Positions 1-64,000 of a stretch of DNA of 64,000 nt are shown one piece after another (positions within the stretch are counted from its first letter, which is position 1; the number at the start of each line of letters is the position of its first letter). A program made the position numbers and the translations under genes. The notes beneath the pieces are model-generated. The model ran no database searches. It had not been told where the DNA came from and saw nothing but the letters and a program-made list of their open reading frames with translations. Source of the DNA: a virus; the IMG/VR virus record IMGVR_UViG_3300035182_000826, positions 97,453 through 161,452 of that record; one strand, given 5' to 3'.

Positions 1-36
1 TTAGCTCATAAATAAGGCTGAATGAAAGGGAACGCT

Positions 37-1914
37 ATGGCTTCTGACGGATTAACTGAACTGACCACTCATGACCTTTGGATTGAGGCGCGTCAATTTT
101 CGCTCACAATTTCAAGACCATCTCCAACAACGATTGAACTGACTGTTGTCAGACCGTCATCTCTTGCGGTAGTTGATGGTGCTGTGTTGATTATGTCAAC
201 AACAAGCATCACACCTAATGATTACCCAATTGACGGAAAACAGTACGTTGGCAGCACCACATTTGGTGATCCAACTGCGTCGCTGATTGACAACTCACAA
301 GTGATTTCGTTCTGGAGCGAGATTCTTGGATCACCGTTCCCAACTTCAATCACTAACGCAGATGGCAATCTGCAATTTTCAGTGACTGTTACTGGAACTG
401 ACCCAAACACAATTTACTACGCGTCAGTTCACGCAAGCACTAATGTCTTGCAGTACTACCCAATTGGAGTTCAGTCATACCCACTTGAGGCCTCTCGTAT
501 TGAGAAGGACAGCTCAACGTATACTGGGTCGATTCCATCATTGCCATACGCCCCAGTGTCGCCAACACCAGGCATGGTGTACCATGACCAACAGCTGAAT
601 ATTGTCCAGTACTGGGATGCAGCGAATGGTGTTTGGATTCCAACTCGCACTGACAGTATCATGTCAGGTGAGTACAACCCAGGGGTGCTTGGCCAAACGT
701 ACATTCTTGCTGGATCAACACTGAAGGTATTTGACGGTAAAAAGTGGGTTCAAGCAAGCAACTCTAATCTGACTTTCAAAGACAGCACATCAGCATGGGT
801 TCCACTTGGCAAGATCACCGCGTCTATGATCATTCCAACTGATCCAATTCCTGGTGATTTCCTGTACAACTACACGTCAAACAGACCAACTTACTGGGAT
901 GGTACTGATTGGGTTGTTGCAACAACGTCAAACACTCTGTTCAACACTGGTGCCACATGGGTACCAGCATTCAAGGCTCCCTTCACTCTTGAAGGTGAAG
1001 ACCTAATTAATCCTTACATTGGTCTGTTGTTCTACAACACACGTGCTCACATCCTGAATGTTTGGGATGGTTCCACATGGATTCAAGCTAACACTGATCA
1101 GCAAGGTACATCAACCACTGATAAGATCAGCATTGGTAATGATGGCTCATATGACGAGCGTCTTCGCTTGATCAAAGTGCTGAAAGCGCAGCTTGGTTGG
1201 CCAGCACGATGTGTTGAGCTTTCTGAAGAGCAGTTCAACGTGGCGATCGACAATGCCCTTGACACGTATCGTCAGTTGAGCGTTGGCGCATACGAACGTC
1301 GGTTCATGGTGTACCCACTGCTGCGTGATCAGCAAGTGTACTATTTGAACTCGCCAATCGACAGAACTGATTCAGTCGTCAGCGTGATCAAGATTCACAG
1401 ATTGAATGTGTTCGGTGTTACTGGTTCTGGCCCAGACAACACTTGGGGTCAAGCATTCATCCAACAGTTCTACAACTTCGCAGGTGGCGGTGCTGATTTG
1501 CTAAGCACACATCTTGTTCACTCATGGTCTGAAGAATTCTCTCGTATCTTTGCGGCAGATTTGCCTTACGTCTGGAACGAGGCAAGACGTGAGCTGTACA
1601 TCATGCGCGCAATCAGAGCGAATGAAAAGGTTGTCATGGAGGTAGAGATTGAACGGTCAGAGCAAGAGCTTCTGCTTGATCGTTACTGCAAGCAGTTCAT
1701 TCAGAACTGGGCTTTGGCTGAGTGTAAAGAATACCTCGGTGTCATTCGTTCTAAGTACACATCTGGTTCACCTGGTGCATCGGGAAACATTACACTGAAC
1801 GGTGAAACCTTGTTGAATGAGGCCCGCCAAGATTTTACAGAGCTGAAAGAGGCTCTGCTGAATTATGAGTACCAAAATGGTGAGCACGGGAACTTCTCAT
1901 TCATGATTGGCTGA
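37..1914 (+). CDS. Neck/head-tail adaptor protein (T4 gp13-like C-terminal domain) with a long N-terminal repeat-containing extension
   Basis: C-terminal LKAQLGWPARCVELSEEQFNVAIDNALD...ITLNGETLLNEA resembles gp13; several PxPGxxYxx...WDG repeats upstream; TAAATA at 9-14; sits before gp14/gp15-like genes. Start could be 22 or 37. Confidence 0.8.
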   Translation: MASDGLTELTTHDLWIEARQFSLTISRPSPTTIELTVVRPSSLAVVDGAVLIMSTTSITPNDYPIDGKQYVGSTTFGDPTASLIDNSQVISFWSEILGSPFPTSITNADGNLQFSVTVTGTDPNTIYYASVHASTNVLQYYPIGVQSYPLEASRIEKDSSTYTGSIPSLPYAPVSPTPGMVYHDQQLNIVQYWDAANGVWIPTRTDSIMSGEYNPGVLGQTYILAGSTLKVFDGKKWVQASNSNLTFKDSTSAWVPLGKITASMIIPTDPIPGDFLYNYTSNRPTYWDGTDWVVATTSNTLFNTGATWVPAFKAPFTLEGEDLINPYIGLLFYNTRAHILNVWDGSTWIQANTDQQGTSTTDKISIGNDGSYDERLRLIKVLKAQLGWPARCVELSEEQFNVAIDNALDTYRQLSVGAYERRFMVYPLLRDQQVYYLNSPIDRTDSVVSVIKIHRLNVFGVTGSGPDNTWGQAFIQQFYNFAGGGADLLSTHLVHSWSEEFSRIFAADLPYVWNEARRELYIMRAIRANEKVVMEVEIERSEQELLLDRYCKQFIQNWALAECKEYLGVIRSKYTSGSPGASGNITLNGETLLNEARQDFTELKEALLNYEYQNGEHGNFSFMIG

Positions 1915-1988
1915 TTGTGTATGTGGACATTTGTGAGATGGTATCATGCCATGCGGCAGAATAAATAGAAAAACTCTTTCGGACGGCT

Positions 1989-3803
1989 ATGTCAACTTGT
2001 CCAGATCAAGCGGGTTCTTTAAACAACCCAAACAACACAGATAACATCTCGACCATCAACGGAACAACAGTTACCAAGTATGTTCCTACTGATGTCTGCA
2101 TTGGCGAGGATGATCTTACTGCCACAGGTGATTCGGCTCTGCAAGAATCATACGCGGCAGAGAATCTGAACCTATCAGGTGCCCCTTTGAATGTGTTCAA
2201 ACTCTTAGGTGTACATGAGCAAGGTAAGCTTGTTGACGTCACTGGAAATGGAACACCATTGAACGGTAGCGGTGAGGTGTTCAACGATGATGCTACTTCA
2301 TGGGTGTCTCCACAGGTAGGATTAGCTGTTCTCCAATCAGCATGGATTGGCTATGACTTTGGCACAATCAAGACCAGCTATGGTCAAGAGGCCTATGCGC
2401 CCGGTGAGCCGTTTCTTCAGCCTGTCTCAAGCTTGAAGATTTGTCAGCCAACTGATAACAGACGCGCGCTACAGGTCAGGATTGACAGTTCAGACGGTGG
2501 ATTCTCAGCTGGAACACCAACGATCACTGGTAGCGGCACTATTGCGATCCAGTTCACAGCAGGGCCAGAGTCTAAGTCTGGTACCTTCATGTTGTCATTT
2601 ACGTCAGCCACAACATTTCAGGTGTACTTTGTTGGGCAGAGCACCGCCCTCGTTGGCCTCGGTGCCCTCGGCGCACGCGTAAACAGCATGTTTGGATCCT
2701 TTACACCGACCGGTTCCGGATTCAACCCGGGTGATCTCGTGTCGTTTCCAATTGAGTTAGACTGGAAGCGAGTTGACGTTGTGAATCTGCCAAATGACTC
2801 GAACGTGAACTTTGTCCGCTTCCGCGATTCGGCGCCTAGACGCTTCTGGAGAATTGTGCCGCTGTCATTTAGCGGTGTGTCAACTAATGATCCTTGGGAA
2901 GTTCAAAGCCTTGAACTGTTCGACTACAAACAAACACGTTTAGATGACATCCAGGACCAGTTGTTCATGGAGAATCGTGATCGTGATTATGACAAGAAGG
3001 CCGTTCAGATCAAAATCGCTTACTCAACATTTGATGCTATCTCAGATCTGACAAAGTTCGGCTTCACGATTTCAGACACTTACAACATGACCACTACCTT
3101 TACCACAATGGTAAAGGCGCTTGGGCGCCCTTTGGTTGTTGGTGATGTTCTTGAATTACCAAGTGAAGTCCAGTACGATCACAATCTAAAACCAATCAGA
3201 AAGTTCCTAGAGGTCACTGACACTTCATGGGCTGCAGATGGATTCACGACTGAATGGAAGCCAGTGATTTTCAGATTCCAAGCATCTAAGCTAATCGTTG
3301 GCCAAGAACACCGAGACCTCTTTGGTAGTGTTCTAACACAGAAGTACACAGTGGATGATGGGTCATTCTTTGATGGCATCGAGATGCTGAACACTGGGGA
3401 CTTGACCGCAACTGAAGTGAACGCCGCTGAAGCCCAAATGGCTTCACCTGAAAAGGGTGCGAACAATAGAGAGATTGCGTCAGGAACAAATCGCTTTAGA
3501 ACTCCTGGGTCCTATGATGGTGTTGATCTTTACGTAGAGGATGGACTACCTCCTGATGGCCAGCCATATACTGAAGGGTTCAAGTTGCCTGATGTTGCCA
3601 CGGCTGTTGACGGGGCGTTCTTCAGATTGAACTATGACCCTGCATTAAACATCCCATCAAGACTTTACCAGTACCGTGCTGACAAGGCACACTGGCTTTA
3701 TGTTGAAACCGATCGCCGTGGGCAGAACAACTCTCTTCGCCCTTCACAGCAGCTGATTATGGGAATGCAACCTGTTCCTTTGAACAGTAAGGACCTAGGA
3801 TGA
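1989..3803 (+). CDS. Neck/head-closure protein (T4 gp14-like) with inserted discoidin-like and beta-sandwich domains
   Basis: IQDQLFMENRDRDY, DLTKFG and GRPLVVGDVLELP motifs; synteny gp13-gp14-gp15; TAAATA at 1962-1967. Confidence 0.7.
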   Translation: MSTCPDQAGSLNNPNNTDNISTINGTTVTKYVPTDVCIGEDDLTATGDSALQESYAAENLNLSGAPLNVFKLLGVHEQGKLVDVTGNGTPLNGSGEVFNDDATSWVSPQVGLAVLQSAWIGYDFGTIKTSYGQEAYAPGEPFLQPVSSLKICQPTDNRRALQVRIDSSDGGFSAGTPTITGSGTIAIQFTAGPESKSGTFMLSFTSATTFQVYFVGQSTALVGLGALGARVNSMFGSFTPTGSGFNPGDLVSFPIELDWKRVDVVNLPNDSNVNFVRFRDSAPRRFWRIVPLSFSGVSTNDPWEVQSLELFDYKQTRLDDIQDQLFMENRDRDYDKKAVQIKIAYSTFDAISDLTKFGFTISDTYNMTTTFTTMVKALGRPLVVGDVLELPSEVQYDHNLKPIRKFLEVTDTSWAADGFTTEWKPVIFRFQASKLIVGQEHRDLFGSVLTQKYTVDDGSFFDGIEMLNTGDLTATEVNAAEAQMASPEKGANNREIASGTNRFRTPGSYDGVDLYVEDGLPPDGQPYTEGFKLPDVATAVDGAFFRLNYDPALNIPSRLYQYRADKAHWLYVETDRRGQNNSLRPSQQLIMGMQPVPLNSKDLG

Positions 3804-7912: not shown

Positions 7913-9265
7913 GAATATCCAATTCCCATAGTTCAAGACTTTTTCAAACCCAAGTGATGTCATTATCTGATCTTCAGTCATATCCATGTCAAACTCTGGA
8001 TATTGCTGAAGCAGTTTTTGCTTTTGTGTTTCGCCGCGTGACAACACAATGTTTCCGCGTTTCCACACGTAGCCTGGCTTAGTCTTACCAACTAAAGTAA
8101 AACCAGCTCTATGATAAATTGTGTCTGTTGGATCTGGTGACCATCTAGCGTCACAGTAAGTGATGCATTCCTGTACATTAAAGTGTGAAAAGCATTTTTG
8201 AAATCCACCAATAATAGTGATTCCTGGCTTCACACACCATCGATAGATTTCTAGCACTTTGTCTTTGCCAAATCTGCTTTTGCCAACAGTCATCACAGCT
8301 AGAACCTGCCCATTAAGGGTCAAGCAGATGCTAGTGCCTCTGACATAGCCTTGTGTATGGTACTTTGTCAAAAATTCATGAGCTACCAAAGATGCAGTGG
8401 TGCCAAGAAGAACTGAACACTTTCTGGCATAGATCCTCTCTTTTTTCATCAACAGTGACTGCACCCGAGATAACACCGCCTGCTCATTTGTAATCAACTC
8501 AACGTCTTGAATTGTGACTACCTTGATGCCATTCACTTTGGCATCTTGGATTTTGTCTAAATCTCGCGTTTGATCTTGATGCCAGTGTGAGCCGTTTACC
8601 TCAAAGCCAATGTTAGCTTTAGGAGAAAAAATATCTATTTCTCTCCTGTCATTAAGTCCTTGACGATAATTTGAAATCACTGTATCGTCTACTTCTTGAG
8701 CTGCCTTAAAAACCAACCCCTGAATATTTGATACTGAGCATTTTGGACAAGCTATGTATTTTGTTTTTTGGAATGGGCGTTCAAATTCAACACCACAAAT
8801 GTGCTTCCACTTAACAATATCACTGGCTTTAGTTGGTGCTTCTGTTATCAATATGAATCCACGGCTTTTTGCTTCTTCAATTTTCCTACTAAGCGCCTTA
8901 GCTGTTTTTGACTTGGCCATTTTTTCAGAAACAGCTCGTCTGAAATCCTCGTTAGACCACAAATTATCTGTTCCATATTTCCGCTCAAGTGTTTCTTTTC
9001 TTTTTGAGATTGTCACACTTGAGGATTGCCCACAAGACTTAGAACAATTTGATCTATATCCATGGGTAAAATCCCAATACTTGGTTAGATTTCCGCATGC
9101 GCATAGTGGGCGTGTGTGAAATAAATTCCAGATCTTCTCTGACACGCTACTTCCACTAAGCTCAGACAACCATGGTGCCTTATTGGCATTCCATCTTGCC
9201 TTCCTAGAATCAAATGTGCCGTTTGTGAAAAACAGTTCTTCTGCGAGGTTTTTGTAGGATTTCAT
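7904..9265 (-). mobile_element. Free-standing Hef-like homing endonuclease gene (PD-(D/E)XK/Vsr-like domain with Zn-binding motifs)
   Basis: EIDIF...IGFEVNGSHWH nuclease motif; Cys clusters; C-terminal H.QG...YCDARWS domain; AT-richer; antisense between sheath and tube genes. Confidence 0.7.
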
Positions 9266-9970: not shown

Positions 9971-11539
9971 ATGAACTTCTTAGAATATCTCATTGAAGCG
10001 CAATTCAGTGAAGCTGACCTTGAGCGTATCATCAAAGTCTTTGAGCGCAGAGCGCCAAAGCTACTTGGTGGTCCGATTTACCGTTATGGTGGTAAGAAGG
10101 GCGTAGAACAACTTCCAGGCGCCTCAGTCGGCTATCTGTTTTTCTTTGCCACGAACAGAGCATTTCGGATTAGAGCGCGTGCCGGTAAGATTCTTGGGAT
10201 TGATGTCTGGACGAATTACCACCCATTCAATGGCCCTAACTTCGTGATTCATGTTGAGGAACTTGCAGCTGAGGATGTGATCGGTGCAATCAAGGAGATT
10301 GCAAGCATGATCAAGAATCCAAAGGTTGGTAAGATCGAGGTGAAGACAGCAGCGGTCACAGAAGGCATTGAACAACTTGATGAAATGGCCAAGCGTGTTG
10401 ACGCTGACTCATTCTATCAGATGATGGTTAAGTCTGTTGGTAAGGCCGACGCAGAGTCTGCTACATGGGACCAGATCAAGTCAGTGGCCAATGAAAACGA
10501 TGTGCTGATTCCAGCATACATTCGTGATCAGAAGATTGGCCGTGGTAAGTGGAACACCAAGCCAGGCTCAGTTCAGGATATCAGTTCAGGAAAAGAAACT
10601 GAATCTGACGTCAATGATGCGGCGTCAAAGAAGAAAGCGCCAATCATGTACATCAAGGTCACCGCGCAAGACCCTGATACGAAGAAGTTCATTTCTGCTG
10701 ACACACCTGAAGCACAAGCCTTGTACAAGCAGCTTCAAACAACTCTGAAGGCGCCTCCTTCAGAGGAAGAGCTGCGTGACCCTGAAACACTGTACGGCCA
10801 CATGGCTCAGCTAGTTCAGATGGCTTGCAAGGGCTCACTTCGCTCACTGCTGATTTACGGTGGCCCAGGTACTGGTAAGACCTTCACGATCATGAATGTG
10901 GTCAATGATGCCGGGCTCAGCAAGGGAAGCGATTACGTGAAGTTGTCTGGTAAGGCAACGGCGGCTGAAATCTACAAGACGCTGTTCATGTACCGTAAGA
11001 ACGGCCTGGTGATCTTTGATGACTTGGACAGCATGTGGGGTAACCAAGACGCTACCAACATTTTGAAGGCTGCGCTAGACACATCAGACGTTCGTGAAAT
11101 TGCATGGGCTTCACGCGATACCGTGAACGTGTCACGCATGTCTGACAAAGAACGTGAAGAGTTCAATGATAAGGTTGACGCCGAAATTGAAGAGAACCCA
11201 GCTAACGCTAGATACCCATCAATGTTTGACTTCACTGGCCGAGTGATCTTCATCTCAAACCTCCGCAAGGATCAGTTCGACACCGCAATCATGTCACGTT
11301 CAGCTAAGATCAACATGGACTTGACGCCAGCTGAAATTCTGCAACGTATGAGAAACATCCTCCCAACACTTGGTGGTAACGATGTTTCACTTGACAAGAA
11401 ACAGGCACTGCTTGATCACTTGCTAGAGATGCACGGTAAGGGTGAAATCACTGCTGTCACAATGCGTGAATTCATCAAGGGGTTGAACATTGTTCGTTCA
11501 GGTGTACCAAACTGGAAGGAACTCATCCAGTACGCTTGA
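9971..11539 (+). CDS. AAA+ ATPase with N-terminal extension (probable virion protein)
   Basis: Walker A GGPGTGKT, Walker B VIFDD, FTGRVIFISN, SR finger; TAAATA at 9908-9913. Confidence 0.8.
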   Translation: MNFLEYLIEAQFSEADLERIIKVFERRAPKLLGGPIYRYGGKKGVEQLPGASVGYLFFFATNRAFRIRARAGKILGIDVWTNYHPFNGPNFVIHVEELAAEDVIGAIKEIASMIKNPKVGKIEVKTAAVTEGIEQLDEMAKRVDADSFYQMMVKSVGKADAESATWDQIKSVANENDVLIPAYIRDQKIGRGKWNTKPGSVQDISSGKETESDVNDAASKKKAPIMYIKVTAQDPDTKKFISADTPEAQALYKQLQTTLKAPPSEEELRDPETLYGHMAQLVQMACKGSLRSLLIYGGPGTGKTFTIMNVVNDAGLSKGSDYVKLSGKATAAEIYKTLFMYRKNGLVIFDDLDSMWGNQDATNILKAALDTSDVREIAWASRDTVNVSRMSDKEREEFNDKVDAEIEENPANARYPSMFDFTGRVIFISNLRKDQFDTAIMSRSAKINMDLTPAEILQRMRNILPTLGGNDVSLDKKQALLDHLLEMHGKGEITAVTMREFIKGLNIVRSGVPNWKELIQYA

Positions 11540-11636: not shown

Positions 11637-11665
11637 CGGCCTCACCGGTGTCGCCGAGGCTGTGC
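11637..11665 (-). repeat. Solo copy of repeat module A
   Basis: Reverse complement contains GCACAGCCTCGGCGACACCGGTGAGG, identical to the copy at about 24896-24921. Confidence 0.85.
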
Positions 11666-22920: not shown

Positions 22921-23952
22921 GTGTTCAACATGGCAGTTGCTCAAGTTTCTTGGAATCCGAGTCAAGCCCGCTGGGAAGCCACCTTTGGTGGCCGAGTGAT
23001 CGCTTCGAACCGGAACTTCTCTGGTGGCGTCGACTACCTCCGTCGTGTGATCGAAGGCGGCTTCAGCCAGAAGGCCAAGAACCTCGGTATCGACAAGATC
23101 GAAGTCCTGCAAGCGTCGACTGCGCTGTCGAACGTTGTGAACGGCACGATGAACTCCGATGATGAGTTGGCTCCGGAGCCACTGCGCAGTCTGGATGATG
23201 AATTCCCGATCAACGAGCGCTTCGCGATCATGACTGACTACGTCGAGATGGTCGCTGAAAAGCAACTCGCATCAACGATCGTGACCGGTGAAGGCGGTCT
23301 CGGCAAGTCATTCACGGTGATGCGCACGCTGCGAGCCTGCGGCCTGGAAGACACCGACAAGTACCTCGGTGCCAAGGAAATCGGCTCTTCGTTCGATGGC
23401 TTCCGCGGCTACAAGGTCATCAAGGGGTACTCCACCGCGAAGGGTCTGTACCGCACGCTGTACGAGTATCGGAACCAGATCGTTGTGTTTGACGACTGTG
23501 ACTCCATCTTGAAGGATGCGAACGCGGTGAACGTGCTCAAGGCTGCCCTTGACAGCTACGATGTTCGAATCGTGTCGTGGAATGCCGAATCGATGATGGG
23601 TGATGATGACCTGCCGCGCAGCTTCGAGTTCACTGGCGGCGTGATCTTCATCTCGAACCTTCCGAAGTACAAGGTGCCGCAAGCCATTCGCTCTCGTGCC
23701 ATGTGTGCCGATGTGAGCATGTCCCGCGATGAAGTCATCGAGCGCATGCAAGTCATCATTGAGTCTGACGAGTTCATGCCGAACTTCTCGATGGAGCATA
23801 AGCGTGAAGCCCTCCAGTTCGTGTCTGATCATCGTGATGATCCGCTGATCGCTGAACTGAACCTTCGCTCGCTGGTGAACGCGGTCAAGGCCCGTGAAGC
23901 CAAGCCGGACTCGTGGGAGCGTCTCGCCCTGTACTCCATGGCGAACTCCTAA
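22921..23952 (+). CDS. AAA+ ATPase, paralogue of 9971..11539
   Basis: GEGGLGKS, VVFDDCDS, NVLKAALD, FTGGVIFISN and AIRSR motifs; GC3-rich codons. Confidence 0.85.
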   Translation: MFNMAVAQVSWNPSQARWEATFGGRVIASNRNFSGGVDYLRRVIEGGFSQKAKNLGIDKIEVLQASTALSNVVNGTMNSDDELAPEPLRSLDDEFPINERFAIMTDYVEMVAEKQLASTIVTGEGGLGKSFTVMRTLRACGLEDTDKYLGAKEIGSSFDGFRGYKVIKGYSTAKGLYRTLYEYRNQIVVFDDCDSILKDANAVNVLKAALDSYDVRIVSWNAESMMGDDDLPRSFEFTGGVIFISNLPKYKVPQAIRSRAMCADVSMSRDEVIERMQVIIESDEFMPNFSMEHKREALQFVSDHRDDPLIAELNLRSLVNAVKAREAKPDSWERLALYSMANS

Positions 23953-24033: not shown

Positions 24034-24069
24034 GGCCCTACAGCGAAAGTTGTAGGGCCATTTTTTATT
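24034..24069 (+). terminator. Intrinsic terminator
   Basis: GGCCCTACAGC-GAAA-GTTGTAGGGCC followed by a T run. Confidence 0.85.
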
Positions 24070-24071
24070 CT

Positions 24072-25005
24072 GCCTCGGCGACACCGGTGAGGCCCGGCTC
24101 ACACAGGCTCGCCAAGACATATATCTTTATTGGCCACTATTTTTAAGCGCACCGGCGTCGCCTCGTGTCGCCGGCTCACGTTGAACCCGCTATTCGTCGG
24201 CTAATGCGCTCTGTGTGCGCCTCACCACTATGAACACCACCTCACTCCAATGAGAACCTGAAGAACTGGTCACCTCGCTCCAATGAAGAACTTGTTGGAG
24301 AATCCGTTGAACCCGCTATCTGTCGGCTAATGCGCTCTATGGGCGCTCACGCCTCACTTAAACTTTTTGCTAATGATAATGTCAGCTCTTGAAGGTCCTT
24401 GACCGTGTCATAGAACCCATTGAACCCGCTATTCGTCGGCTAATGCGCTCTATGAGCGCACTGTGCACCTCACACAAAGAGCCCCTTCTAATTTGGCGCC
24501 TTTCTTAAGTGCAGTTCGCCATAAGCGATAGAGCACCACCTCGGCGACACCGGTGAGGTCCGGCTCACACCGGACCTCACCACCAATAAGTTATGCACAG
24601 CACTTGGCCGGTGTGAGCCGGCGTCGCCTCGTGTCGCCGGCTCACGTTGAACCCGCTATTCGTCGGCTAATGCGCTCTGTGTACGCACACTGTGAGCGAC
24701 TATGACCAATGAAAACTGATCACCTGCTCCAATGAAGAACTTGTTGGAGAACTTGTTGGAGAACTTGTTGGAGAGCCCATTGAACCTGCTATTCGTCGGC
24801 TAATGCGCTCTGTGTGCGCCTCACCACTAAGAACACTCTTCTAATTTGACACTTTCTTAAGTGCGGCACAAATGGCAGTTCGCCATAAGCAATGAGCACA
24901 GCCTCGGCGACACCGGTGAGGTCCGGTGTGAGCCGGACCTCACCGCCAATAAGTTATGCACAGCACTTGGCCGGTGTGAGCCGGCGTCGCCTCGTGTCGC
25001 CGAGG
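24072..25005 (+). repeat. Non-coding modular repeat cluster 1 (modules A-E; five copies of 32-bp repeat C)
   Basis: TTGAACCCGCTATTCGTCGGCTAATGCGCTCT (0-2 mismatches) at 24181, 24307, 24420, 24647 and 24780; CCTCGGCGACACCGGTGAGG at 24073, 24539 and 24902; CCGGCGTCGCCTCGTGTCGCCG three times; GAACTTGTTGGA x3; no ORF of 60 aa or more. Confidence 0.95.
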
Positions 25006-25053
25006 GTGACAGGCGTCAATAGAAGATAAATAGCCAATCATTATGGAGTTCAT

Positions 25054-25701
25054 ATGAAAGTCAAAGATCTATTACAAGAGCTCATTGGCATCAAGAAGTA
25101 CCAAGGCGTTGACTTGCTGCAGCTTCTCATGAAGCTCCAAAGTGAAAAGAAGATCAACGTGAAGAATGGGTCTTTCAGTGTCGTAATCATTCCTGAGAAT
25201 GAAGACTTTGTGTACAGAGTGTGGACACAGGATGGTGGTTGGTTAGATTATATGGAGTACTGCATTGACCACCAAGACAATCCACACATCTTGAAAATCA
25301 AGAGTCGTGCGAAGAAGATTCCATTCATTTTTCAGAGACCTGAGGGGTTTGAGACAACACTGTATGTTGTCAAGACTGAGAAACTACAACCTTTGATTTC
25401 CAACATTGATCTGTTTGATCAGGTCAGAGTGTTCAGTAATATCGTGCAAAGAGATTTTCCAACATATGCGATTGTGAATAAGAGAATCAAAGAGCAAACT
25501 GGAATCAAGACTGATTTTGATAAGAGCTTCTATGACACGGTCAAGGACCTTCAAGAGCACTCACCCTTTCTACTTGACATCTCAACTTCGAATGTGATGC
25601 TGCGTGGAACTACTCTGGTTCTCTCTGATCCAATTGCAGAAGTCGGAACTAAGGAATTCAAAACAGCTGCTGACATTATCATTAGCAAAAAGTTTAAGTG
25701 A
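25054..25701 (+). CDS. Protein-kinase-like protein (reminiscent of T7 gp0.7 kinase domain)
   Basis: NGSFSVV Gly-loop, NPHILKI, YVVKTEKL, LDISTSNVM catalytic loop, LSDP; TAAATA at 25027-25032. Confidence 0.6.
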   Translation: MKVKDLLQELIGIKKYQGVDLLQLLMKLQSEKKINVKNGSFSVVIIPENEDFVYRVWTQDGGWLDYMEYCIDHQDNPHILKIKSRAKKIPFIFQRPEGFETTLYVVKTEKLQPLISNIDLFDQVRVFSNIVQRDFPTYAIVNKRIKEQTGIKTDFDKSFYDTVKDLQEHSPFLLDISTSNVMLRGTTLVLSDPIAEVGTKEFKTAADIIISKKFK

Positions 25702-25747
25702 GGTGTGAGCGCCCGTTATACGCATTAGCCGACGAATAGCAGGTTCA
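25702..25747 (-). repeat. Solo inverted copy of repeat C directly after the kinase stop codon
   Basis: 25721-25747 is the exact reverse complement of 24781-24807. Confidence 0.9.
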
Positions 25748-25819
25748 CGATTTAACCCAAAAAGGGTTTTAGCAAATAAACCCATTAAGTTACATTTTCT
25801 GTACTTCTAAGGTCAGAAA

Positions 25820-27082
25820 ATGGAAAGAAAACTAGTAACAGTTAGACCGATCAGCGCGCTTCTGCCAATCCCTGGGGCTGATGCAATTGAAACTGCTGTC
25901 ATTGACGGGTGGACAGTGGTTGTGAAGAAGGGTGAATTTCAAGTAAATGACCTGTGTGTTTACTTTGAGATTGACAGCTTCCTTCCAGACGGCAACCCAG
26001 CATGGCAATTCTTGGTTGACAAACAGAGTCAAGAATTTGAGGGTGTCAGAGGACATCGACTACGCACCATTCGGCTTCGCAAGCAGTTGAGCCAAGGGCT
26101 GGCTCTGCCGCTTAGCGCGTTTCCACAAATTAAAGACTCTGTTCCGAAGTCGTTTGATGTTAAACCTGGCGCGATTCACCAGGTTTATGGTGAATATCTG
26201 TCTGACACGGACTTCGCTCCACTTCTAGATGTCAAGAAGTGGGAAGCTACTCTGCCAGCACAGCTAGCTGGCCAAGCTGAAGGTCTGTTCCCGTCATTCA
26301 TCGTGAAGACTGATCAAGAGCGCTGCCAAAACCTCTGTCGTCAAATCTTCGGTTATGATCCACAAGTTGTGCCGGTTGATTCTTCAAATATCCCCCAAGA
26401 CGAGATTGATCGACTGCTGAGCACTGGCGAGTTCGTGAAGAATGAGGATGGTAGCATTTCAAAATTGCTGCCAGCGCAAGCGTCGCGTAATGATTGGTAT
26501 GAAGTCACAATCAAGCTTGATGGTTCCTCAATGACTGTCTTCAATGATGGTGGGTACTATGTGAATGAAGACGGCACAGATCATGTTGGTGTCTGCAGTC
26601 GCAATCTAGAGCTCAAGGACAACGAAGAGAACGCCCAGAACGCGTTCGTGAAGATGTTCAATGAGAGCGGCCTGAAGGACGCGCTGAAGAAGACTGGACT
26701 TGCAGTCGCCGTTCAAGGTGAGCTGATGGGCCCGAACATTCAAGGCAATCGTGAAAACCTGAAGGTGCATCAGTTCTTCGTGTTTAACATTCAAGCGCTT
26801 GCGCCAGATGTTCAGCAATTCCTGCCTCCACTGCAGCGTCTTGCAGTGCTTGAAAAGCTCTACGACGCTGGTGTGTCAAGAGAGTTGGTCATGCATGCTC
26901 CGATCCTCTTCTCCAATACCACTCTTGAGGCCCTTGGCATTGAAGATATCCAATCGCTCTTGGACTTCGCGAATGGTCCTTCACTGAACAATCCTGTTCG
27001 CGAAGGCCTGGTTTTCAAGCGGCATGACGGGCTGTTCAGCTTCAAGGCCATCAGCAATCATTACCTGCTGCAGGAGAAGTGA
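25820..27082 (+). CDS. RNA ligase, DRB0094 family
   Basis: RKLVTVR.I....PIPGADAIE, VYFEIDS, KTDQER, motif I KLDGSS, QGEL, EGLVFK and SFKAISN. Confidence 0.9.
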   Translation: MERKLVTVRPISALLPIPGADAIETAVIDGWTVVVKKGEFQVNDLCVYFEIDSFLPDGNPAWQFLVDKQSQEFEGVRGHRLRTIRLRKQLSQGLALPLSAFPQIKDSVPKSFDVKPGAIHQVYGEYLSDTDFAPLLDVKKWEATLPAQLAGQAEGLFPSFIVKTDQERCQNLCRQIFGYDPQVVPVDSSNIPQDEIDRLLSTGEFVKNEDGSISKLLPAQASRNDWYEVTIKLDGSSMTVFNDGGYYVNEDGTDHVGVCSRNLELKDNEENAQNAFVKMFNESGLKDALKKTGLAVAVQGELMGPNIQGNRENLKVHQFFVFNIQALAPDVQQFLPPLQRLAVLEKLYDAGVSRELVMHAPILFSNTTLEALGIEDIQSLLDFANGPSLNNPVREGLVFKRHDGLFSFKAISNHYLLQEK

Positions 27083-27691: not shown

Positions 27692-28111
27692 TTGGAGACG
27701 GTTGTGGACAGAAATACACTCATCAAAGAAGCGTGTGAAGCTGCTCTTGAAATCAATGAGCAGCTGAACTTTCTCTTAGACTCTTATGACATCTTCAGAG
27801 AAGGATTAATGACAACGCCAATCAGCACCTGCCATATCGTTGATGTAAACACTGCCATCAAAGAGATTACAGGGCTAACAAAGCTGATGTCGATTGTTCT
27901 TCAACAGTGGAAAAATGGAGTCTCTGAGTTTTCAGCCGCCGGTTTGGAGATCCATGTATTGAATGAGCTTCATGTTCAAATTTTGACACTGTTTAGATTC
28001 CTAGAGTTGATGAGTATTCACTCAAGCACTTTCGACTTGGCCCAGTTGAACGCGGCTGTTGAGAGATTCAGAATCGCAAATAGAGGCCTGAACAAGGTGA
28101 CGCATGATTAA
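27692..28111 (+). CDS. Hypothetical protein
   Basis: ORF; TAAATA at 27673-27678; start uncertain. Confidence 0.55.
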   Translation: METVVDRNTLIKEACEAALEINEQLNFLLDSYDIFREGLMTTPISTCHIVDVNTAIKEITGLTKLMSIVLQQWKNGVSEFSAAGLEIHVLNELHVQILTLFRFLELMSIHSSTFDLAQLNAAVERFRIANRGLNKVTHD

Positions 28112-35735: not shown

Positions 35736-35763
35736 GCCTCGGCGACACGAGGCGACACCGGTG
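35736..35763. repeat. Solo hybrid of repeat modules B and A
   Basis: GCCTCGGCGACACGAGGCGACACCGGTG; CCTCGGCGACACGAGGCGAC is the reverse complement of 24986-25005. Confidence 0.8.
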
Positions 35764-41724: not shown

Positions 41725-44358
41725 ATGCGCATCACCTTTAGACAAGGTCTCATCGCTTTTCAAAAAGACAATGGAGCTCCACAGTTCCTACAGGCCTCAT
41801 CGACTACTTCTTACGTGACACATGTGGTTTCACCAACCGCAACAGTGATCACATTTGCACATGGCAGCTCTGATTACCTGACGACATTTGACACTCAAGT
41901 AGAAACTGCTTGGGGTCCAGTTACTGCTGGTGTCACGAACTACCTATATTGGGATATGGATTTGCTAACTGGCGCCATTACGCGTGGTATCACACTGCAT
42001 CCTCCAATCTCATCACTGACGGCACCTTCATCTCCATCAAACGACCAGCACTGGTTTGATTTGAGTACAACCACAATGAAGGTCTGGAGCACTTCCAAGA
42101 ACAAATGGATGCCTAAGATCAGACTCTTTGCTGGTTATGTTTCTAATGGCAACACTTCACAAATCACAATGTACGGAGAAGGCTCTCAGGTAGGGCTAAC
42201 TACGGCGACACCGGTGGGCGCCGGCTACATTGTTCGTGACACGTTGTTGAACCCTATGAGAAAGAGTTCTGGTGAGTTCCTGACCACTGAGGATAAGACT
42301 CATGTTGACGCAACAGTTGGCACTTCAGGCGTCTTGGTCCAGCCAGTGAATCGTGTCTCAGTAGTCAGAGCTGGTGAGAACATTCCTGCAATGTCATTGG
42401 TTTACTTCTCAGGTGATGATGTTGTCAAGCTTGCAAGCTCAAATCCAGCCCTATCACCTGCTAGAGTTCCAGTTGGTATCATGCTGGAGGCTGTTGCTTC
42501 TGGTGATGTTGGTGTTCTATCTCCATTTGGTGAAATCTCCTATGACCAATGGGATTGGTCAGGCTTTGCTGGCAGTGCGCTTTACTGTGACACGAATGGC
42601 CAGCTGACAAGAACCCGCCCAGCAGGTCTGTTGGCTTATCGTGTCGGTTTCATCAAAAACCCAACTACGGTTCTACTAGATCTTGACGCCGAGACAAACC
42701 CTCAGGTTTACACCGCCGATGTGAACAGCTTGGTCATTTCTGGCATTTCTCCAGTAGTAACAACTGACACAATCAATGGACTTGGTGAACGGGTAGTAAC
42801 CATCGGGGTGCCAAATTCCACGCTGACATCAAGTGGGTTGATGAGTGCAGCTCAGGCCGTCCAGCTTGACTCATTTAACACTCGAATCACCGCAGCTGAA
42901 CAAGAGATTGTTGTTCTTGAAACTTCAAAATCTGATGTTGGCCACATGCACGCAATTGCTGATGTGACAAACCTTCAGACGACTATTGATGGCATCAACA
43001 CCGCTCTTAATGGGAAAGTGGATAAGGTGGTTGGTGTTATTGGGAACTTTCCAGCTTTTGGAGCAAGTGGTTCCATTGTTGACAGCACTTTTAGTGGCTC
43101 TTCTTTCGCGCTGGTAATTCACACGCACACAATCGCTGATGTGACTGGCTTGCAAAACGCACTAAATGGCAAGTCAAACCGCGTGCACTTTAACAGCTTC
43201 GCTGAAATCTATGAAACTGTTGACCGCACATCATCAGTTGATGTTGGATCTGGCAACACCCTTGTTACTGCGCTCGCGTTGAAGTCAAATGTCGGCCACA
43301 TGCACGCGATTAGTGATGTTTCAGGCTTACAAACTGAGTTGGATGGTAAGTCAAATGTTGGTCACTTGCACACGATTGCCGACGTTTCAGGCTTACAAAC
43401 TGAGTTGAACAACCGCGCATACGTTTCTCACTCGCACACTCCAGCCTCAATTACGGGCGGCACTGCAGGACAAGTGATTGTCTCAAATGGCACCGCTGGA
43501 ACGTGGAGCACTGTTTCGTTTGAAACTCCTGTTGCGCCAGGAACCGTCACGCAGTACTACCGTGGTGATAAGACATGGCAGACGCTGAATAAAACAGCTG
43601 TTGGTCTTGATCAGGTCGATAACACCACTGATCTGAACAAGCCAATCAGCACAGCTACTCAAGCGGCACTTGATTTGAAATCAAATGTAGGACACACCCA
43701 TGTGGCTGCAGACATTACTGATTTTGTATCAGCCACTGATACAGAAATCAATGCTCACCTTGCTGCAGGAGAGAACATCTCATTCAGTACAGTGGCTGGT
43801 CATTTGGTAATTTCTGGGCAGGGTGGCTATGTTTACAAGCCAGTTCATTTGGTCACCACTGAAAACATTGACTTGCAAACACCACCAACCACAATTGATG
43901 GCGTCGCTATTCCAAACCATGGTCGTGTTCTTGTGCAAGCACAAACAGTGCACTCAGAGAACGGAATTTACGTTTATCAAGAAGGTGCTCTTGTCAGATC
44001 AGCTGATATGCCAGTTGGTGCTTCATTAGTTTTTGGTTCATTGGTGTATGCGCTAAGTGGAACAGCATTTGGCGGGTCGCTATTCGCAGTAACGAGTGAT
44101 GATCAGATCGCATTGACTTCTATCGTTGTTGGCACCGATGGAATTGCATTTAAGCATGTTGCCTCAGGGGCCACCGGATCTTCACTAACAGTGCTAGACA
44201 CTGAGGCTGGTCTTAACGAAGATTTCCCAAGCACTGGAAGTGTTGAAACCCTCACATTTGGAAATGGTTTGAAGGTCTACACTGCAGCACCAAATAGTGT
44301 TGAAGTTATTTCCGTGATTAAGACACGGACACTGAACCTAAACATTGACAACGTATAA
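41725..44358 (+). CDS. Tail fibre protein with HxH repeats
   Basis: Repeated KSNVGHxH.IADV.GLQT.L; VGLDQVDNT.D.NKPIS motif; AAGGA RBS. Confidence 0.85.
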   Translation: MRITFRQGLIAFQKDNGAPQFLQASSTTSYVTHVVSPTATVITFAHGSSDYLTTFDTQVETAWGPVTAGVTNYLYWDMDLLTGAITRGITLHPPISSLTAPSSPSNDQHWFDLSTTTMKVWSTSKNKWMPKIRLFAGYVSNGNTSQITMYGEGSQVGLTTATPVGAGYIVRDTLLNPMRKSSGEFLTTEDKTHVDATVGTSGVLVQPVNRVSVVRAGENIPAMSLVYFSGDDVVKLASSNPALSPARVPVGIMLEAVASGDVGVLSPFGEISYDQWDWSGFAGSALYCDTNGQLTRTRPAGLLAYRVGFIKNPTTVLLDLDAETNPQVYTADVNSLVISGISPVVTTDTINGLGERVVTIGVPNSTLTSSGLMSAAQAVQLDSFNTRITAAEQEIVVLETSKSDVGHMHAIADVTNLQTTIDGINTALNGKVDKVVGVIGNFPAFGASGSIVDSTFSGSSFALVIHTHTIADVTGLQNALNGKSNRVHFNSFAEIYETVDRTSSVDVGSGNTLVTALALKSNVGHMHAISDVSGLQTELDGKSNVGHLHTIADVSGLQTELNNRAYVSHSHTPASITGGTAGQVIVSNGTAGTWSTVSFETPVAPGTVTQYYRGDKTWQTLNKTAVGLDQVDNTTDLNKPISTATQAALDLKSNVGHTHVAADITDFVSATDTEINAHLAAGENISFSTVAGHLVISGQGGYVYKPVHLVTTENIDLQTPPTTIDGVAIPNHGRVLVQAQTVHSENGIYVYQEGALVRSADMPVGASLVFGSLVYALSGTAFGGSLFAVTSDDQIALTSIVVGTDGIAFKHVASGATGSSLTVLDTEAGLNEDFPSTGSVETLTFGNGLKVYTAAPNSVEVISVIKTRTLNLNIDNV

Positions 44359-46085: not shown

Positions 46086-46757
46086 ATGGGAATGTTCAGC
46101 GGAAACAAGAAGCTCGAAACTGCCGGGCCTTCCAAGACGAAGAGGAAGACCGAGTACGAGATCAAGGGCATCCGTGACCTGGCGATCCTCGATGCGTTCA
46201 TCGACTCGCTGACCACCATGAAAGCGACGCTGGAATCCAACGTCAAGATCGCCGGCTTCTCCAAGTTCTTGACTCTGACTGGCGGCCCGCGCCTGACGAG
46301 CTTCGTTGGTGTGGAAGACGTCGGCCGCAGCTCCGTGGAAATGCGCAAGCGTACCTCGCGCAGCGTCCTCACCGAAGAGGAAGTCGAGGTTCTGGAAAAG
46401 AACGGGTACAAGGTCGAGCCCACTGTGATCCAGAAGAAGCTGTTCGCTGTGAACCCGGAATACATGAACGACATGGCGCTGCTCCGGCGCGTCGAGAAAG
46501 CGCTGGCCAAGGTCGTTCCGGAAGATTTCTTCCTCGTGCAAGAGGAAGTGACCGCCAAGCTCGTCTCTGACGAACACATGACGAAGGCCTTTGCTGAAGG
46601 TGCGCCGGCCGAAGTCTTCAACATCATCTCGACGATGGCGCTGAAGACCACGCTGTCCCCCGAGTACGACCAACGGAACCTGCGGGATGACGCGATGGAA
46701 ATCGCCTTCCCGACGAAGCCGGCAATCAAGCCCGCTCGCAAGGCCGCAGTGAAGTGA
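46086..46757 (+). CDS. Hypothetical early protein
   Basis: GGAG RBS; GC3-rich codons. Confidence 0.7.
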   Translation: MGMFSGNKKLETAGPSKTKRKTEYEIKGIRDLAILDAFIDSLTTMKATLESNVKIAGFSKFLTLTGGPRLTSFVGVEDVGRSSVEMRKRTSRSVLTEEEVEVLEKNGYKVEPTVIQKKLFAVNPEYMNDMALLRRVEKALAKVVPEDFFLVQEEVTAKLVSDEHMTKAFAEGAPAEVFNIISTMALKTTLSPEYDQRNLRDDAMEIAFPTKPAIKPARKAAVK

Positions 46758-48348: not shown

Positions 48349-49467
48349 GTGTTTATGGTTTTCTTAACTTTCTTTTCAGCCTTCCTAATCGAAGGTCTTG
48401 GAACTGTAATTTCAGTTCTAGGAGCAATGGCTCTGTTTGGTGTGAACCCTATAATCACATCACTATTCGTTGGCCTTGACATTTGTAAGATGGTGGTGCT
48501 ATCGCTGCTTTACAAAAACTGGATTGGCTTCAATGGAATCATGAAGAGCTATGGGGTGATTGCAACCGTCATCATGATGACAATCACTAGTGCTGGCGCA
48601 GCTGGATACCTTACAGGCGCCTTTCAAACTGCCATCTTAGGGTCTCAAGAGGGATCACTTAAGGTCAGCACTCTCAAAGAGCAGCAAGCAAAGTATGAGG
48701 AACGAAAGAAGCAGATCGACGAACAGATTGCATCGCTTCCAGAAAAAACCTCTGTGAATCAGCGCATTCGAATGATGAACGCGTTCAAGACCGAGCAGGC
48801 TGACCTTCAATCCAAAATCAATGACATTGACAAAGAGCTGCCAGCACTACAGGTGAAACAGCTTGGGGTTGAAGCAAAGGCCGGGCCAATCTTATACTTG
48901 GCAAAGGCATTCAACATTAGTGTTGAAGAAGCCATCAAATACGTGATCATGATGATCATTGTTGTGTTTGACCCGCTTGCGGTGTACCTTGTGCTGGCTG
49001 GGAACTATCTCCTAGCTCAACGGAAGGTCGCCTCGGCGACGCCGGTGGAGCCGGTTGCACCACAGGTGACTGAGCCAACAGAACCTATTGAGACTGTTAA
49101 ACAGAGTGAGCACGTGTCACCTCGTGTCGCCGAGGCTGTTGCTCTTCCTGAGCCAGTTCCTGAGCCAGTTCCTGAGGTAGAACCTGAGGTCGTTCCTGAG
49201 CCAGTTCCTGAGGTCGTTCCTGAGGTCGTTCCTGAGGTCGTTCCTGAGGTCGTTCCTGAGGTCGTTCCTGAGGTAGAACTTGAACAGCCAGCGCAATCTG
49301 TTCAGCGCCCAGCATATGACTTGATTACCAAGGACATGCTTCTTGGGAAAAAGCGCCAGTCATCAAGCGAGTTTAGGTCCTCATTGAATGATGTTCAAGC
49401 TGACGCTTTGACACAAACTGATGGTGATCGCGCCGGCGTGAACCTAAATCTTTACACTGGTCAATAA
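48349..49467 (+). CDS. Membrane-anchored coiled-coil protein with Pro-Glu-Val repeat tail
   Basis: Three N-terminal TM segments, coiled coil, GP..YLA, IIVVFDPLAV.L, PEVV repeats. Confidence 0.75.
   Translation: MFMVFLTFFSAFLIEGLGTVISVLGAMALFGVNPIITSLFVGLDICKMVVLSLLYKNWIGFNGIMKSYGVIATVIMMTITSAGAAGYLTGAFQTAILGSQEGSLKVSTLKEQQAKYEERKKQIDEQIASLPEKTSVNQRIRMMNAFKTEQADLQSKINDIDKELPALQVKQLGVEAKAGPILYLAKAFNISVEEAIKYVIMMIIVVFDPLAVYLVLAGNYLLAQRKVASATPVEPVAPQVTEPTEPIETVKQSEHVSPRVAEAVALPEPVPEPVPEVEPEVVPEPVPEVVPEVVPEVVPEVVPEVVPEVELEQPAQSVQRPAYDLITKDMLLGKKRQSSSEFRSSLNDVQADALTQTDGDRAGVNLNLYTGQ
49146..49277 (+). repeat. In-frame 12-bp tandem repeat (CCTGAGGTCGTT and variants), about 11 units
   Basis: Encodes PEPV/PEVE/PEVV. 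Confidence 0.9.
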
Positions 49468-58250: not shown

Positions 58251-58325
58251 GCAGTACCTTCTGACTGAGGTACTGGTCAACTTCCCTGAAAAGCTTCCTC
58301 ACTACTCACTGAAAGGTGAACTCAC

Positions 58326-58718
58326 ATGACCTGCATCTTCGTTGGAATGCCGACTGCAGGCTCGGTTCAGGATGGCAAGATCAAAGAGGACATTTTGCGT
58401 CTCATCGCAGACATGCACTCTGACGACGGCGTCACCGTCATCGCGCCCATGATCCAGGCCTACCAACTCCTGCCGTTCATGAACACGGACGCGTCCTACA
58501 AGGTCTGGGGCAGGCGCTGTGAAGACGTGCTGATCCGATCTGACATCGTTGCGATCATCCTGTGCGAAGGCTGGTCCGAGCCTACCACGAAAGAGTCCGA
58601 GAAGAACTACTCGACTGGTGTCAAGGCTGAAATCGCGACGGCGAAGAAGTACGGCAAGTCGATCTTCTTCGTGGATCCGGCTGTCCGGCCGATCGGCTTC
58701 CTCTTTCCGAAAGAGTGA
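58326..58718 (+). CDS. Nucleoside 2-deoxyribosyltransferase-like / DUF1937 protein
   Basis: IFVGMP, D.V....GW, STGVKAEI..A...GK.IF. Confidence 0.6.
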   Translation: MTCIFVGMPTAGSVQDGKIKEDILRLIADMHSDDGVTVIAPMIQAYQLLPFMNTDASYKVWGRRCEDVLIRSDIVAIILCEGWSEPTTKESEKNYSTGVKAEIATAKKYGKSIFFVDPAVRPIGFLFPKE

Positions 58719-58726
58719 CCACACAG

Positions 58727-59216
58727 GCACAGCCTCGGCGACACCGGTGAGGTCCGGCTCACTTCGAATTTAAGAGGCGTTAAGATATACACCAGGGCTC
58801 TTTCGTGAGCCCTGGGGCGTTTTAGGTGACACGAGAAAAGAATAGGTCCTCTTAGGTGCAGCGCGCACAGAGCGCATTAGCCGACAGATAGCGGGTTCAA
58901 TTGGTTCTTCAACAAGTTCTTCATTTGGAGAGAGTGGCCAGTTGCTCACACAGCGCGTGCCCATAGAGCGCATTAGCCGACAGATAGCGGGTTCAACATC
59001 ATCCGGCGACACGAGGCGACGCCGGCTCACACCGGCCAAGTGCTGTGCATAACTTATTGGCGGTGAGGTCCGGTGTGAGCCGGGCCTCACCGGTGTCGCC
59101 GAGGCTGTGCTCTATCGCTTATGGCGAACTGCACTTAAGAAAAGGCGTCAAATTAGAAGGTGGCCATTGTTACTCACAGTGCGTGCCCACAGAGCGCATT
59201 AGCCGACGAATAGCGG
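58727..59216 (-). repeat. Non-coding modular repeat cluster 2 (mostly an inverted copy of cluster 1 modules)
   Basis: Reverse-complement repeat C at 58869-58900, 58965-58996 and 59191-59216 (partial); modules B, A and E at about 59003-59159; forward module A at 58727-58762. Confidence 0.95.
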
Positions 59217-59279
59217 AAACATGTAAGTCTATCGTGTCAGAAAATAAATACCGTTGAAGTAGTTCGAAAGTAGGACGAT

Positions 59280-63329: not shown

Positions 63330-64000
63330 ATGACAGAAAAATCCATCACCTCATTCAAAGGCTTCGATGCCAATCTGAAGTGTCGAGGCTTCCAGTACGA
63401 AGTAGGGAAGAGCTACGAGCATGCTGGCGGCGTAGAAGTCTGCAAGAGCGGCTTTCATGCCTGCGAGTACCCGCTGAGCGTATTCCACTACTACCCACCA
63501 GCCGGCAGTCGATTCGCACTCGTTGAGCAATCCGGCTCGCTGAGTCGTCGAGGTGAGGACGGCAAAGTTGCCAGTCGCCATATCAGCGTGAAAGCCGAGC
63601 TAACCATCGCTGACCTGGTCAAAGCTGCGGTGGAGTACACAACCAGCCGCAGCAAACCTATAGACCCAGAATCCGCAGCATCCGCAACGGGCGACTACAG
63701 CACCGCATCCGCAACGGGCTACCAAGGAGCAGCGTCCTCCACGGGCTACCAAGGAGCAGCATCCGCAACGGGCGACTACGGCGCAGCATCCTCCACGGGC
63801 TACCAAGGAGCAGCATCCTCCACGGGCGACTACGGCGCAGCGTCCGCAACGGGCGACCGAGCCGCTGCATCCGCAACGGGCGACTACGGCGCAGCGTCCG
63901 CAACGGGCGACCGAGCCGCTGCATCCGCAACGGGCTACCAAGCCGCTGCGGCCGCGACTGGCGTATGCGGAGCAGTGTCCTCCACGGGCTACCAAGCCGC
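63330..64000 (+). CDS. Phage protein with N-terminal conserved domain and 9-aa Gly/Ala/Ser repeats (runs off the window; not in the ORF track)
   Basis: AGGA RBS; MTEKSITSFKGFDANLKCRGFQYEVGKSY...CKSGFHACEYPL...; then 27-bp repeats encoding AASATGDYG/AASSTGYQG from about 63676. Confidence 0.85.
   Translation, partial: MTEKSITSFKGFDANLKCRGFQYEVGKSYEHAGGVEVCKSGFHACEYPLSVFHYYPPAGSRFALVEQSGSLSRRGEDGKVASRHISVKAELTIADLVKAAVEYTTSRSKPIDPESAASATGDYSTASATGYQGAASSTGYQGAASATGDYGAASSTGYQGAASSTGDYGAASATGDRAAASATGDYGAASATGDRAAASATGYQAAAAATGVCGAVSSTGYQA

Follow-up and report, generated by a model that had tools for sequence, protein, structure and literature searches.

What is the role of a block of shuffled repeat modules lodged between two genes of a large phage? 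The block occupies positions 24072-25005 of the window analysed here, a 64,000-nucleotide stretch corresponding to bases 97453-161452 of a 161-kb IMG/VR record; positions without further label refer to this window, and those marked as genome positions refer to the record. The record is a fragment of a T4-like jumbo phage (completeness ~45% by CheckV), with a large terminase nearest to that of Ralstonia phage RsoM2USA (46% amino acid identity) and next to those of XacN1 and PA5oct, and the window encodes two RNA-repair enzymes, a DNA-ligase-like protein and T4-type gp32, UvsX and UvsW. A sequence-only reading had interpreted the block as an iteron-type replication origin, an array of structured non-coding RNAs or a recombination hub, an interpretation that our analysis partly supports. 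The chief interest lies outside the coordinates of that reading, in a 19-bp site that recurs at even spacing across the clade and that the array carries in amplified form.

Architecture of the array

Every module of the proposed order A-B-C-D-C-C-E-A-B-C-D-C-E-A-B was recovered in place, with A starting at 24073, 24539 and 24902, B at 24152, 24618 and 24981, C at 24181, 24307, 24420, 24647 and 24780, D at 24278 and 24727, and E at 24485 and 24838. The reported C spacings of 126, 113, 227 and 133 bp were exact, and the 32-mer C repeat occurs seven times in the window versus none in 100 shuffles. The array has a GC content of 54% and is indeed non-coding, with no ORF longer than 53 aa inside it.

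All parts lie on the plus strand. An intrinsic terminator at 24034-24069 (11-bp stem with 7 G-C pairs, followed by a T-run), recovered by a terminator scan as the proposed upstream bound, is followed by A-B unit 1 (24073-24173), a palindrome with outer arms CCTCGGCGACAC / GTGTCGCCG and a diverged interior, and by C copy 1 (24181-24212), a 32-mer that holds the clade-conserved 19-mer core at 24189-24207. Next come a D module (24278-24301), which is a hairpin-like CTCCAA...TTGGAG linker, C copy 2 (24307-24338) of the CTGT subtype, a captured fragment (24339-24419) that is the reverse complement of the 3′ end of the downstream gene ORF215, and C copy 3 (24420-24451), which precedes the best hairpin of the array (TGCGCTC-TAT-GAGCGCA). 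An E/F module (24485-24538), a type always found immediately 5′ of A, leads into A-B unit 2 (24539-24639), the canonical 98-bp palindrome, and then C copy 4 (24647-24678), an expanded D module built of a 12-bp tandem repeat (x3.2, 24727-24774), C copy 5 (24780-24811) and a long-form E/F module (24838-24901). A-B unit 3 (24902-25005) closes the array with a full terminal site, GTGTCGCCGAGG, and an inner hairpin loop that is flipped, reading TGTGAG instead of CTCACA. All C copies face ORF215 and the repair genes. The GCGC hairpin said to follow each C is good after copies 2 and 3 but not after the other copies of this array, and its varying 3′ arm had been thought to keep pairing; because the 5′ arm is the same in every copy, the pairing shows no true covariation, and across all 30 genomic copies the mean MFE (-5.6 kcal/mol) is barely better than that of shuffles (-4.5 kcal/mol).

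The downstream bound, a T4-type late promoter motif GATAAATAG at 25026-25032 that would serve ORF215, is borne out at the level of its motif class. Of 20 ATAAATA copies in the genome, 16 fall in intergenic sequence, which makes up 9.5% of the total, and 15, including the one at 25026, lie within 80 nt upstream of a gene start on the same strand, a distribution that points clearly to use of the motif in this phage. The terminator closes the upstream operon, which includes a 343-aa AAA+-like gene (22921-23952) whose product matches PHROG 1250 (unknown function) and has weak similarity to RFC subunit 5 and AAA+ proteins (E 0.006). ORF215 (25054-25701, plus strand), the source of the captured fragment, is a real gene of unassigned function with a homologue at 27% identity (E 1e-17) in a relative, G002; neither its product nor the 343-aa protein belongs to a family in Pfam or NCBIfam. 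A 522-aa paralogue of the 343-aa gene (9971-11539) is likewise trailed by a terminator and a solo A box.

The array is one member of a genome-wide repeat family

What had been described as a single local feature proved to belong to a family that spans the record. A, B and C modules fill the largest intergenic gaps at no fewer than six loci (at least six, with solo copies in addition), and an 11-nt core of C occurs 30 times in the 161 kb versus 0.07 expected. In genome order, modules are found at 8.6 kb (a solo C cassette, 8590-8735), at 22.6-24.5 kb (a 1.9-kb plus-strand array with 11 C copies), at 50.2-50.5 kb (with an inverted A-B copy at 50.2 kb), at 69.5 kb and at 92.4-93.6 kb (a minus-strand array). 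Those in the window comprise a solo A box beside a terminator at 11640-11659 (minus strand, genome 109.1 kb), the present array (plus strand, genome 121.5-122.5 kb), a minus-strand solo C at 25715-25748 (genome 123.2 kb) composed of GTGAACCT, the 19-mer, G and TATAAC, a minus-strand solo B site, CCTCGTGTCGCCGAGG, at 35740-35761, flanked by a gene stop and a terminator (genome 133.2 kb), a diverged 105-nt A-B element lying in frame within a membrane-protein gene at 49031-49135 (plus strand, genome 146.5 kb), and a second array of order C, E/F, A-B, C, C, inverted A at 58733-59222 (minus strand, genome 156.2-156.7 kb). The solo C at 25715-25748 is preceded by a hairpin (25754-25770) and aims into the 3′ end of ORF215. 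Array orientation is independent of the strand of the flanking genes, and the array at 92-93.6 kb faces away from any gene.

Throughout the family, near-invariant blocks of 20 nt (A), 22 nt (B) and 32 nt (C) are held at fixed distances in nearly all units (79 nt from A to B, 29 nt from B to C), whereas the sequence between them drifts, is replaced, flips or expands, and the linkers before C consist of slippage-prone 9-13-mers in up to 13 copies. A and B, for which the site sequence is GCACAGCCTCGGCGACACC, form the arms of a 98-bp GC-rich palindrome. In the membrane-protein gene (48349-49467), the N-terminal half is 65% identical to its G002 counterpart and homology stops exactly where the A-B-like element starts; after the element, a 12-bp repeat in 10.8 tandem copies (49145-49274) encodes PEPV/PEVV.

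Several further observations concern genes and repeats near these loci. The record's two RNA ligase genes (25820-27082 and G000:C1:7305-8507), of the PHA02142-OB/RNA_ligase type and the T4 Rnl1 type, each directly adjoin a solo C cassette (25715-25748 and genome 8590-8735, respectively), and the first has changed position relative to G002 and a second relative, G001. The idea that the neighbours of solo C sites are paralogues was rejected. A 2893-aa ORF (G000:C1:24593-33274) with no clear Pfam domain lies directly downstream of the largest array and has repeated segments in common with three large ORFs (26-3196, 41835-44144 and 139051-141810). A multicopy family of small proteins (G000:C1:38292-38906, 58317-58697, 70224-70976 and 75993-77261) has ~26-aa internal repeats and paralogues that are 50-83% identical, with one copy beside the 69.5-kb repeat locus. 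At 63674-64000, a 27/81-bp tandem repeat of 60% GC in ~10 copies runs past the end of the window and contig.

The C core is conserved and evenly spaced in relatives

Self-comparison of G002 (332 kb; RNA ligase 51% identical) yielded a dispersed motif that aligns with the C core, the 19-mer GCTATYYGYCRSCTAATGC, which is thus seen as solo sites in distant relatives. In degenerate form this box occurs 11 times in G002 and eight times in G001, with none for a reversed-pattern control and none in G004 and G005; its CACC variant was found once each in 48 IMG/VR stretches, representing 40 distinct solo sites. The extended solo consensus reads ..aaC, box, CT(G/C)TA(T/A)(T/A), so that a TA-rich, -10-like hexamer follows the box at a fixed distance, and a GC-rich terminator hairpin often precedes it. 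Solo sites occur in either orientation. Some lie just before an RBS and ATG, and about half converge on gene 3′ ends or are intragenic and antisense. One of the latter, within a gene of the virion block, occupies identical codon positions (..I.WQIA..) in G002 and here, despite only 35% identity between the two proteins.

The sites are also regularly placed. Mean spacing is 28.5 kb in G002 (CV 0.25, P=6e-5) and 42.3 kb in G001 (CV 0.27, P=0.002); in this phage it is 29.5 kb for the C-bearing loci (CV 0.31, P=0.02), and all ten repeat loci taken together give a CV of 0.33 (P ~5e-4). The spacing could also mirror the size of gene modules. Several loci appear to correspond between genomes, namely the 22.6-kb array and G002 286.4 kb, the in-gene site, the 156-kb array and G002 82.6 kb, and the neighbourhood of ORF215. 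The A/B end motif forms a few solo sites in G002, beside terminators or upstream of late promoters, and both it and the C box are kept in phages with ~50% protein identity at partly syntenic places. Taking conservation, even spacing and retention within a gene together, we read C as an old, functional, positioned cis element.

The arrays themselves were found only in this phage: none was present in any relative examined, and the whole array has almost no BLAST match in the relatives. The exact 32-mer of C is absent from IMG/VR, neither the array region nor a 61-nt solo-site query matched any GenBank phage, and among 185,579 bacterial species genomes the C core had one chance-level match, which rules out a CRISPR or host-repeat source. 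Several other candidate matches were set aside. Seventeen single matches to a C 17-mer in metagenome contigs are due to chance because their flanks share no similarity; matches to CCTCGTGTCGCCGAGG in IMG/VR are chance or coding, with the exception of L060, a near-identical piece of this genome; and a B-like doublet upstream of the G002 homologue of ORF215 is part of a small GDTGDT-encoding ORF and may have arisen by chance from the coding sequence.

Within this phage, the -10-like part distinguishes two kinds of copy. The three solo C copies carry GTATAAC or GTATTAT after the box, whereas array copies keep a perfect box but have CTCTATGAG, CTCTGTGTG or CTCTGCGCA in the -10-like position; array copies with such degraded hexamers may be inactive as start sites. 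Separately, G002 contains a second motif family (GTTACA ... GGATGTAGTACAAT with a conserved leader, at 46527, 82636, 87373, 123356, 286520, 306804 and 330531) that always lies upstream of an RBS and ATG and probably represents the early promoters of that phage, as well as a tRNA/tmRNA-like 3′ end (GGGGGTTCGACTCCCCC ... CACCTCCACCA) in an intergenic gap (L089, G002:C1:109780-109850).

Repeat loci are sites of recombination

Of the earlier proposals, that of a recombination hub fared best. The captured fragment between C copies 2 and 3 (24339-24419, 81 bp) aligns with the minus strand of 25470-25745 with an internal deletion of ~110 nt, and the homology extends into C copy 2, which matches the solo C after ORF215. 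Exchange between arrays is equally evident: for 10 of the 12 full units the closest relative sits in a different array, and unit 2 of the present array and a unit ~98 kb from it are 95% identical. In the A-B palindrome, the small loop and a 34-bp core each occur in both orientations, and the right arm of the inner hairpin of A has been replaced in four copies; such arm replacements and loop flips are DNA-level events.

Larger rearrangements have their ends at the same loci. Relative to G002, the 24.6-50.1 kb block of the genome (25.7 kb) is inverted and is flanked by the plus-strand array at 22.6-24.5 kb and the inverted A-B copy at 50.2 kb, and synteny is broken at 7 of the 10 gene junctions that hold repeats versus 12 of the 71 that are repeat-free (Fisher P=0.001). 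In G001 and G002 no more than ~1 kb separates the 343-aa gene from the homologue of 27692-28111, and it is here that the array, ORF215, the RNA ligase gene and two small ORFs are intercalated in this phage, the ligase gene lying elsewhere in both relatives. Repeated homologous recombination at the repeat loci is thus directly visible.

Known systems and alternative explanations

The closest published counterparts are the promoter-early stem-loop cassettes (PeSLs) of T4-type phages (PMC2839356, PMC4122927). Like these, the repeats are composites of an intergenic stem-loop and a promoter-like motif dispersed over a T4-like genome, with ~100 bp of homology through which homologous recombination reshuffles gene modules; hairpins stand before many solo boxes, A-B stands before C in the arrays, and recombining copies have caused rearrangements. 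The locus nevertheless fails two defining PeSL features. PeSLs have strong sigma-70 -35/-10 promoters, whereas here the 19-bp box replaces the -35, there is no consensus sigma-70 site within 24072-25005, and a sigma-70 reading of C fits neither strand on inspection (of 22 strong sigma-70-like sites in the genome, only 2 lie between genes). PeSLs also lie directly before ORFans with SD and ATG, whereas here arrays with as many as 11 copies contain no ORF, each array copy is followed by more repeats, and ORF215 has its own late promoter. Further, PeSLs are neither tandem nor evenly spaced and have not been reported within genes.

These likenesses give substance to the strongest alternative, in which the repeats are regulatory cassettes of PeSL kind only, C being a phage-specific (middle-type) promoter, the hairpins and palindromes terminators or insulators, and the arrays by-products of recombination with no part in replication. 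The solo layout of terminator hairpin, box and -10-like hexamer, in several cases just before an RBS and ATG, is what such cassettes would look like, modules are shuffled by cassette recombination as for PeSLs (PMC2839356), and every C of this array does face ORF215 and the repair genes. Yet C has no sigma-70 -35/-10 match, about half of the sites converge on gene 3′ ends or lie antisense within genes, the array at 92-93.6 kb faces away from any gene, the array copies retain the box while losing the -10-like part, and gene regulation alone does not predict an even spacing of ~30 kb. We regard this explanation as unlikely, though it must be taken seriously.

Bacterial BIME/REP mosaics and Rickettsia palindromic elements are mosaic arrays of palindromic units with alternative linkers. 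The present arrays share this make-up, their position after genes and the single in-frame copy, which raises the prospect that A-B is a selfish or neutral element of MITE/RPE or BIME type that spreads together with slippage-prone satellites and brings the phage no benefit. Perfect 12-bp terminal inverted repeats bounding a ~103-bp unit, units in different arrays that are up to 95% identical at a distance of 100 kb, microsatellites of 9-13-mers expanded to 13 copies and the lack of arrays in any relative examined would all suit such an element. BIME/REP mosaics are bacterial, however, whereas the C core is absent from the bacterial genomes searched save for its one chance-level match; inspection of the flanks of solo and end copies revealed no target-site duplications; and the box stays invariant while adjacent bases drift, with the C box and A/B end motif conserved at ~50% protein identity. 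Spread without benefit is accordingly a poor bet.

It is similarly improbable that a factor bound at the boxes establishes topological or condensation domains (e.g. a topoisomerase or condensin-like protein) or aids packaging, with transcription incidental. Spacing that is even and independent of orientation in three genomes, conservation of a site within a gene and clustering of boxes with fixed internal phasing would be expected of chromosome-organising sites. The -10-like hexamer at a fixed distance points instead to RNA polymerase, no candidate protein was found, and to our knowledge T4-type headful packaging requires no organising sites of such kind.

The earlier proposal of structured non-coding RNAs, in which each C with its hairpin or each A-B palindrome would be one RNA unit, is very improbable: the A-B region folds far beyond shuffles (z -5.2 as RNA, -6.8 as DNA) and the upstream terminator insulates the array, but A-B stems are either invariant or broken (covariation term -0.47), the replaced right arms of A and the flipped loops fit DNA-level events, the post-C hairpin overall does no better than shuffles, searches of the region with Rfam (in E-value and gathering modes) and a tRNA scan returned no matches, and neither promoters by consensus nor terminators were found inside the array.

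Other comparisons delimit what the locus is. Clustered direct repeats in a T4-type genome, syntenic in relatives, recall T4 oriE and plasmid iterons (PMC3016281), but iterons are 12-22 nt long and regularly phased, whereas C copies lie 113-227 bp apart with variable linkers in DNA of 54% GC, and the neighbours are the AAA+-like gene and an ORF of no family rather than a Rep gene; with no A+T-rich unwinding element seen either, the iteron part of the origin proposal was not borne out, and the array is not a plasmid-type iteron origin. Spacers of ~80-195 nt that share modules set it apart from CRISPR arrays. Most similar in architecture are the homologous regions (hrs) of baculoviruses, which are likewise large dsDNA viruses: groups of 3-8 repeats, every repeat containing an imperfect palindrome, are scattered over several places and work as enhancers and origins (e.g. 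PMC4535591); hrs belong to a eukaryotic virus, are unrelated in sequence and have a known binding protein, so the analogy is one of architecture only. The locus is a real and non-trivial variant that combines promoter/terminator cassettes with hr-like repeat regions.

A promoter-like site and possible replication origin

Our preferred account, to which we assign a probability of roughly 0.4, is that an ancestral intergenic cassette, in which C is the key cis-acting DNA site and possibly an origin promoter, was amplified in tandem in this lineage to give the array. The ancestral cassette would have consisted of the 19-bp box and, as in solo copies, a TA-rich -10-like hexamer, often with a terminator hairpin in front; in this phage the site would then have expanded, together with the 98-bp GC-rich A-B palindrome and slippage-prone linkers, into at least six homologous regions; the present array has five boxes. 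On the best reading, the array thus resembles a baculovirus-hr-type cluster of a conserved cis site that doubles as a recombination hot spot.

How such a site might act is suggested by its layout. The box ends ~4 nt before the -10-like hexamer, which is how factor-dependent promoters, T4 middle promoters among them, are laid out, and a phage factor could bind the box and direct host RNA polymerase to it, as MotA does at T4 middle promoters. We invoke the host enzyme because no phage RNA polymerase was found; a search for a T7-like RNA polymerase, run without a positive control, returned none, and the genome has a weak gp55-like sigma match. A search for MotA homologues or the MotA C-terminal domain, likewise lacking a positive control, also returned none.

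Transcripts started at these sites may, in turn, prime replication. In T4, the origins oriF and oriG join a factor box at -30 to a -10 hexamer and an unwinding element and give rise to transcripts that prime replication; recombination hot spots are found at T4 origins (PMC3016281). The C site resembles oriF/ori(uvsY) and oriG/ori(34) in its putative factor box at about -30 and -10-like hexamer, in the T4-type replication and recombination genes that accompany it and in its overlap with rearrangement hot spots; it differs in that T4 origins are not tandemly amplified and have no motif in common (PMC3016281), and in that neither a MotA homologue nor an A+T-rich DUE was detected here. Even spacing and in-gene retention would be expected of origins rather than of gene promoters. 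The T4 origin ori(34) itself sits within a late gene. The arrays, by analogy with baculovirus hrs, would serve as reinforced, multi-copy binding clusters.

Clade-wide conservation, even spacing and the T4-ori-like promoter architecture of the C core provide indirect backing for reading the C site as an origin promoter, and the lack of an A+T-rich element, of a skew switch and of a MotA homologue, together with the decayed hexamers of the arrays, weakens it. Specifically, no A+T-rich unwinding element lies downstream of solo sites, where GC at +10..+60 is 0.54 against a background of 0.54 in G002 and 0.39 versus 0.41 upstream in G001; no GC-skew switch occurs at the array; and the weak difference in oriented skew around the G002 sites (z ~-2.4) is confounded by gene strand. 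The would-be non-template strand downstream of array C copies is C-rich, so R-loops are not favoured there. On this evidence, reading the C site as an origin promoter is tentative.

Whichever way the site acts, the arrays show such sites turning into rearrangement engines in T4-like phages, and they extend the PeSL idea to another promoter class and to tandem, ORF-less homologous regions. Taken further, the comparison would have this clade mark multiple replication starts with a 19-bp box and -10 element every ~30-40 kb, with hr-like arrays driving rearrangement in this phage, a proposal that we hold to be doubtful as a whole. If true, this would be the first case of a phage with multiple origins defined by sequence. 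For the question of how jumbo phages, with genomes of 300 kb, organise replication and transcription, a conserved site that is defined by its sequence and recurs at even intervals offers a directly testable handle.
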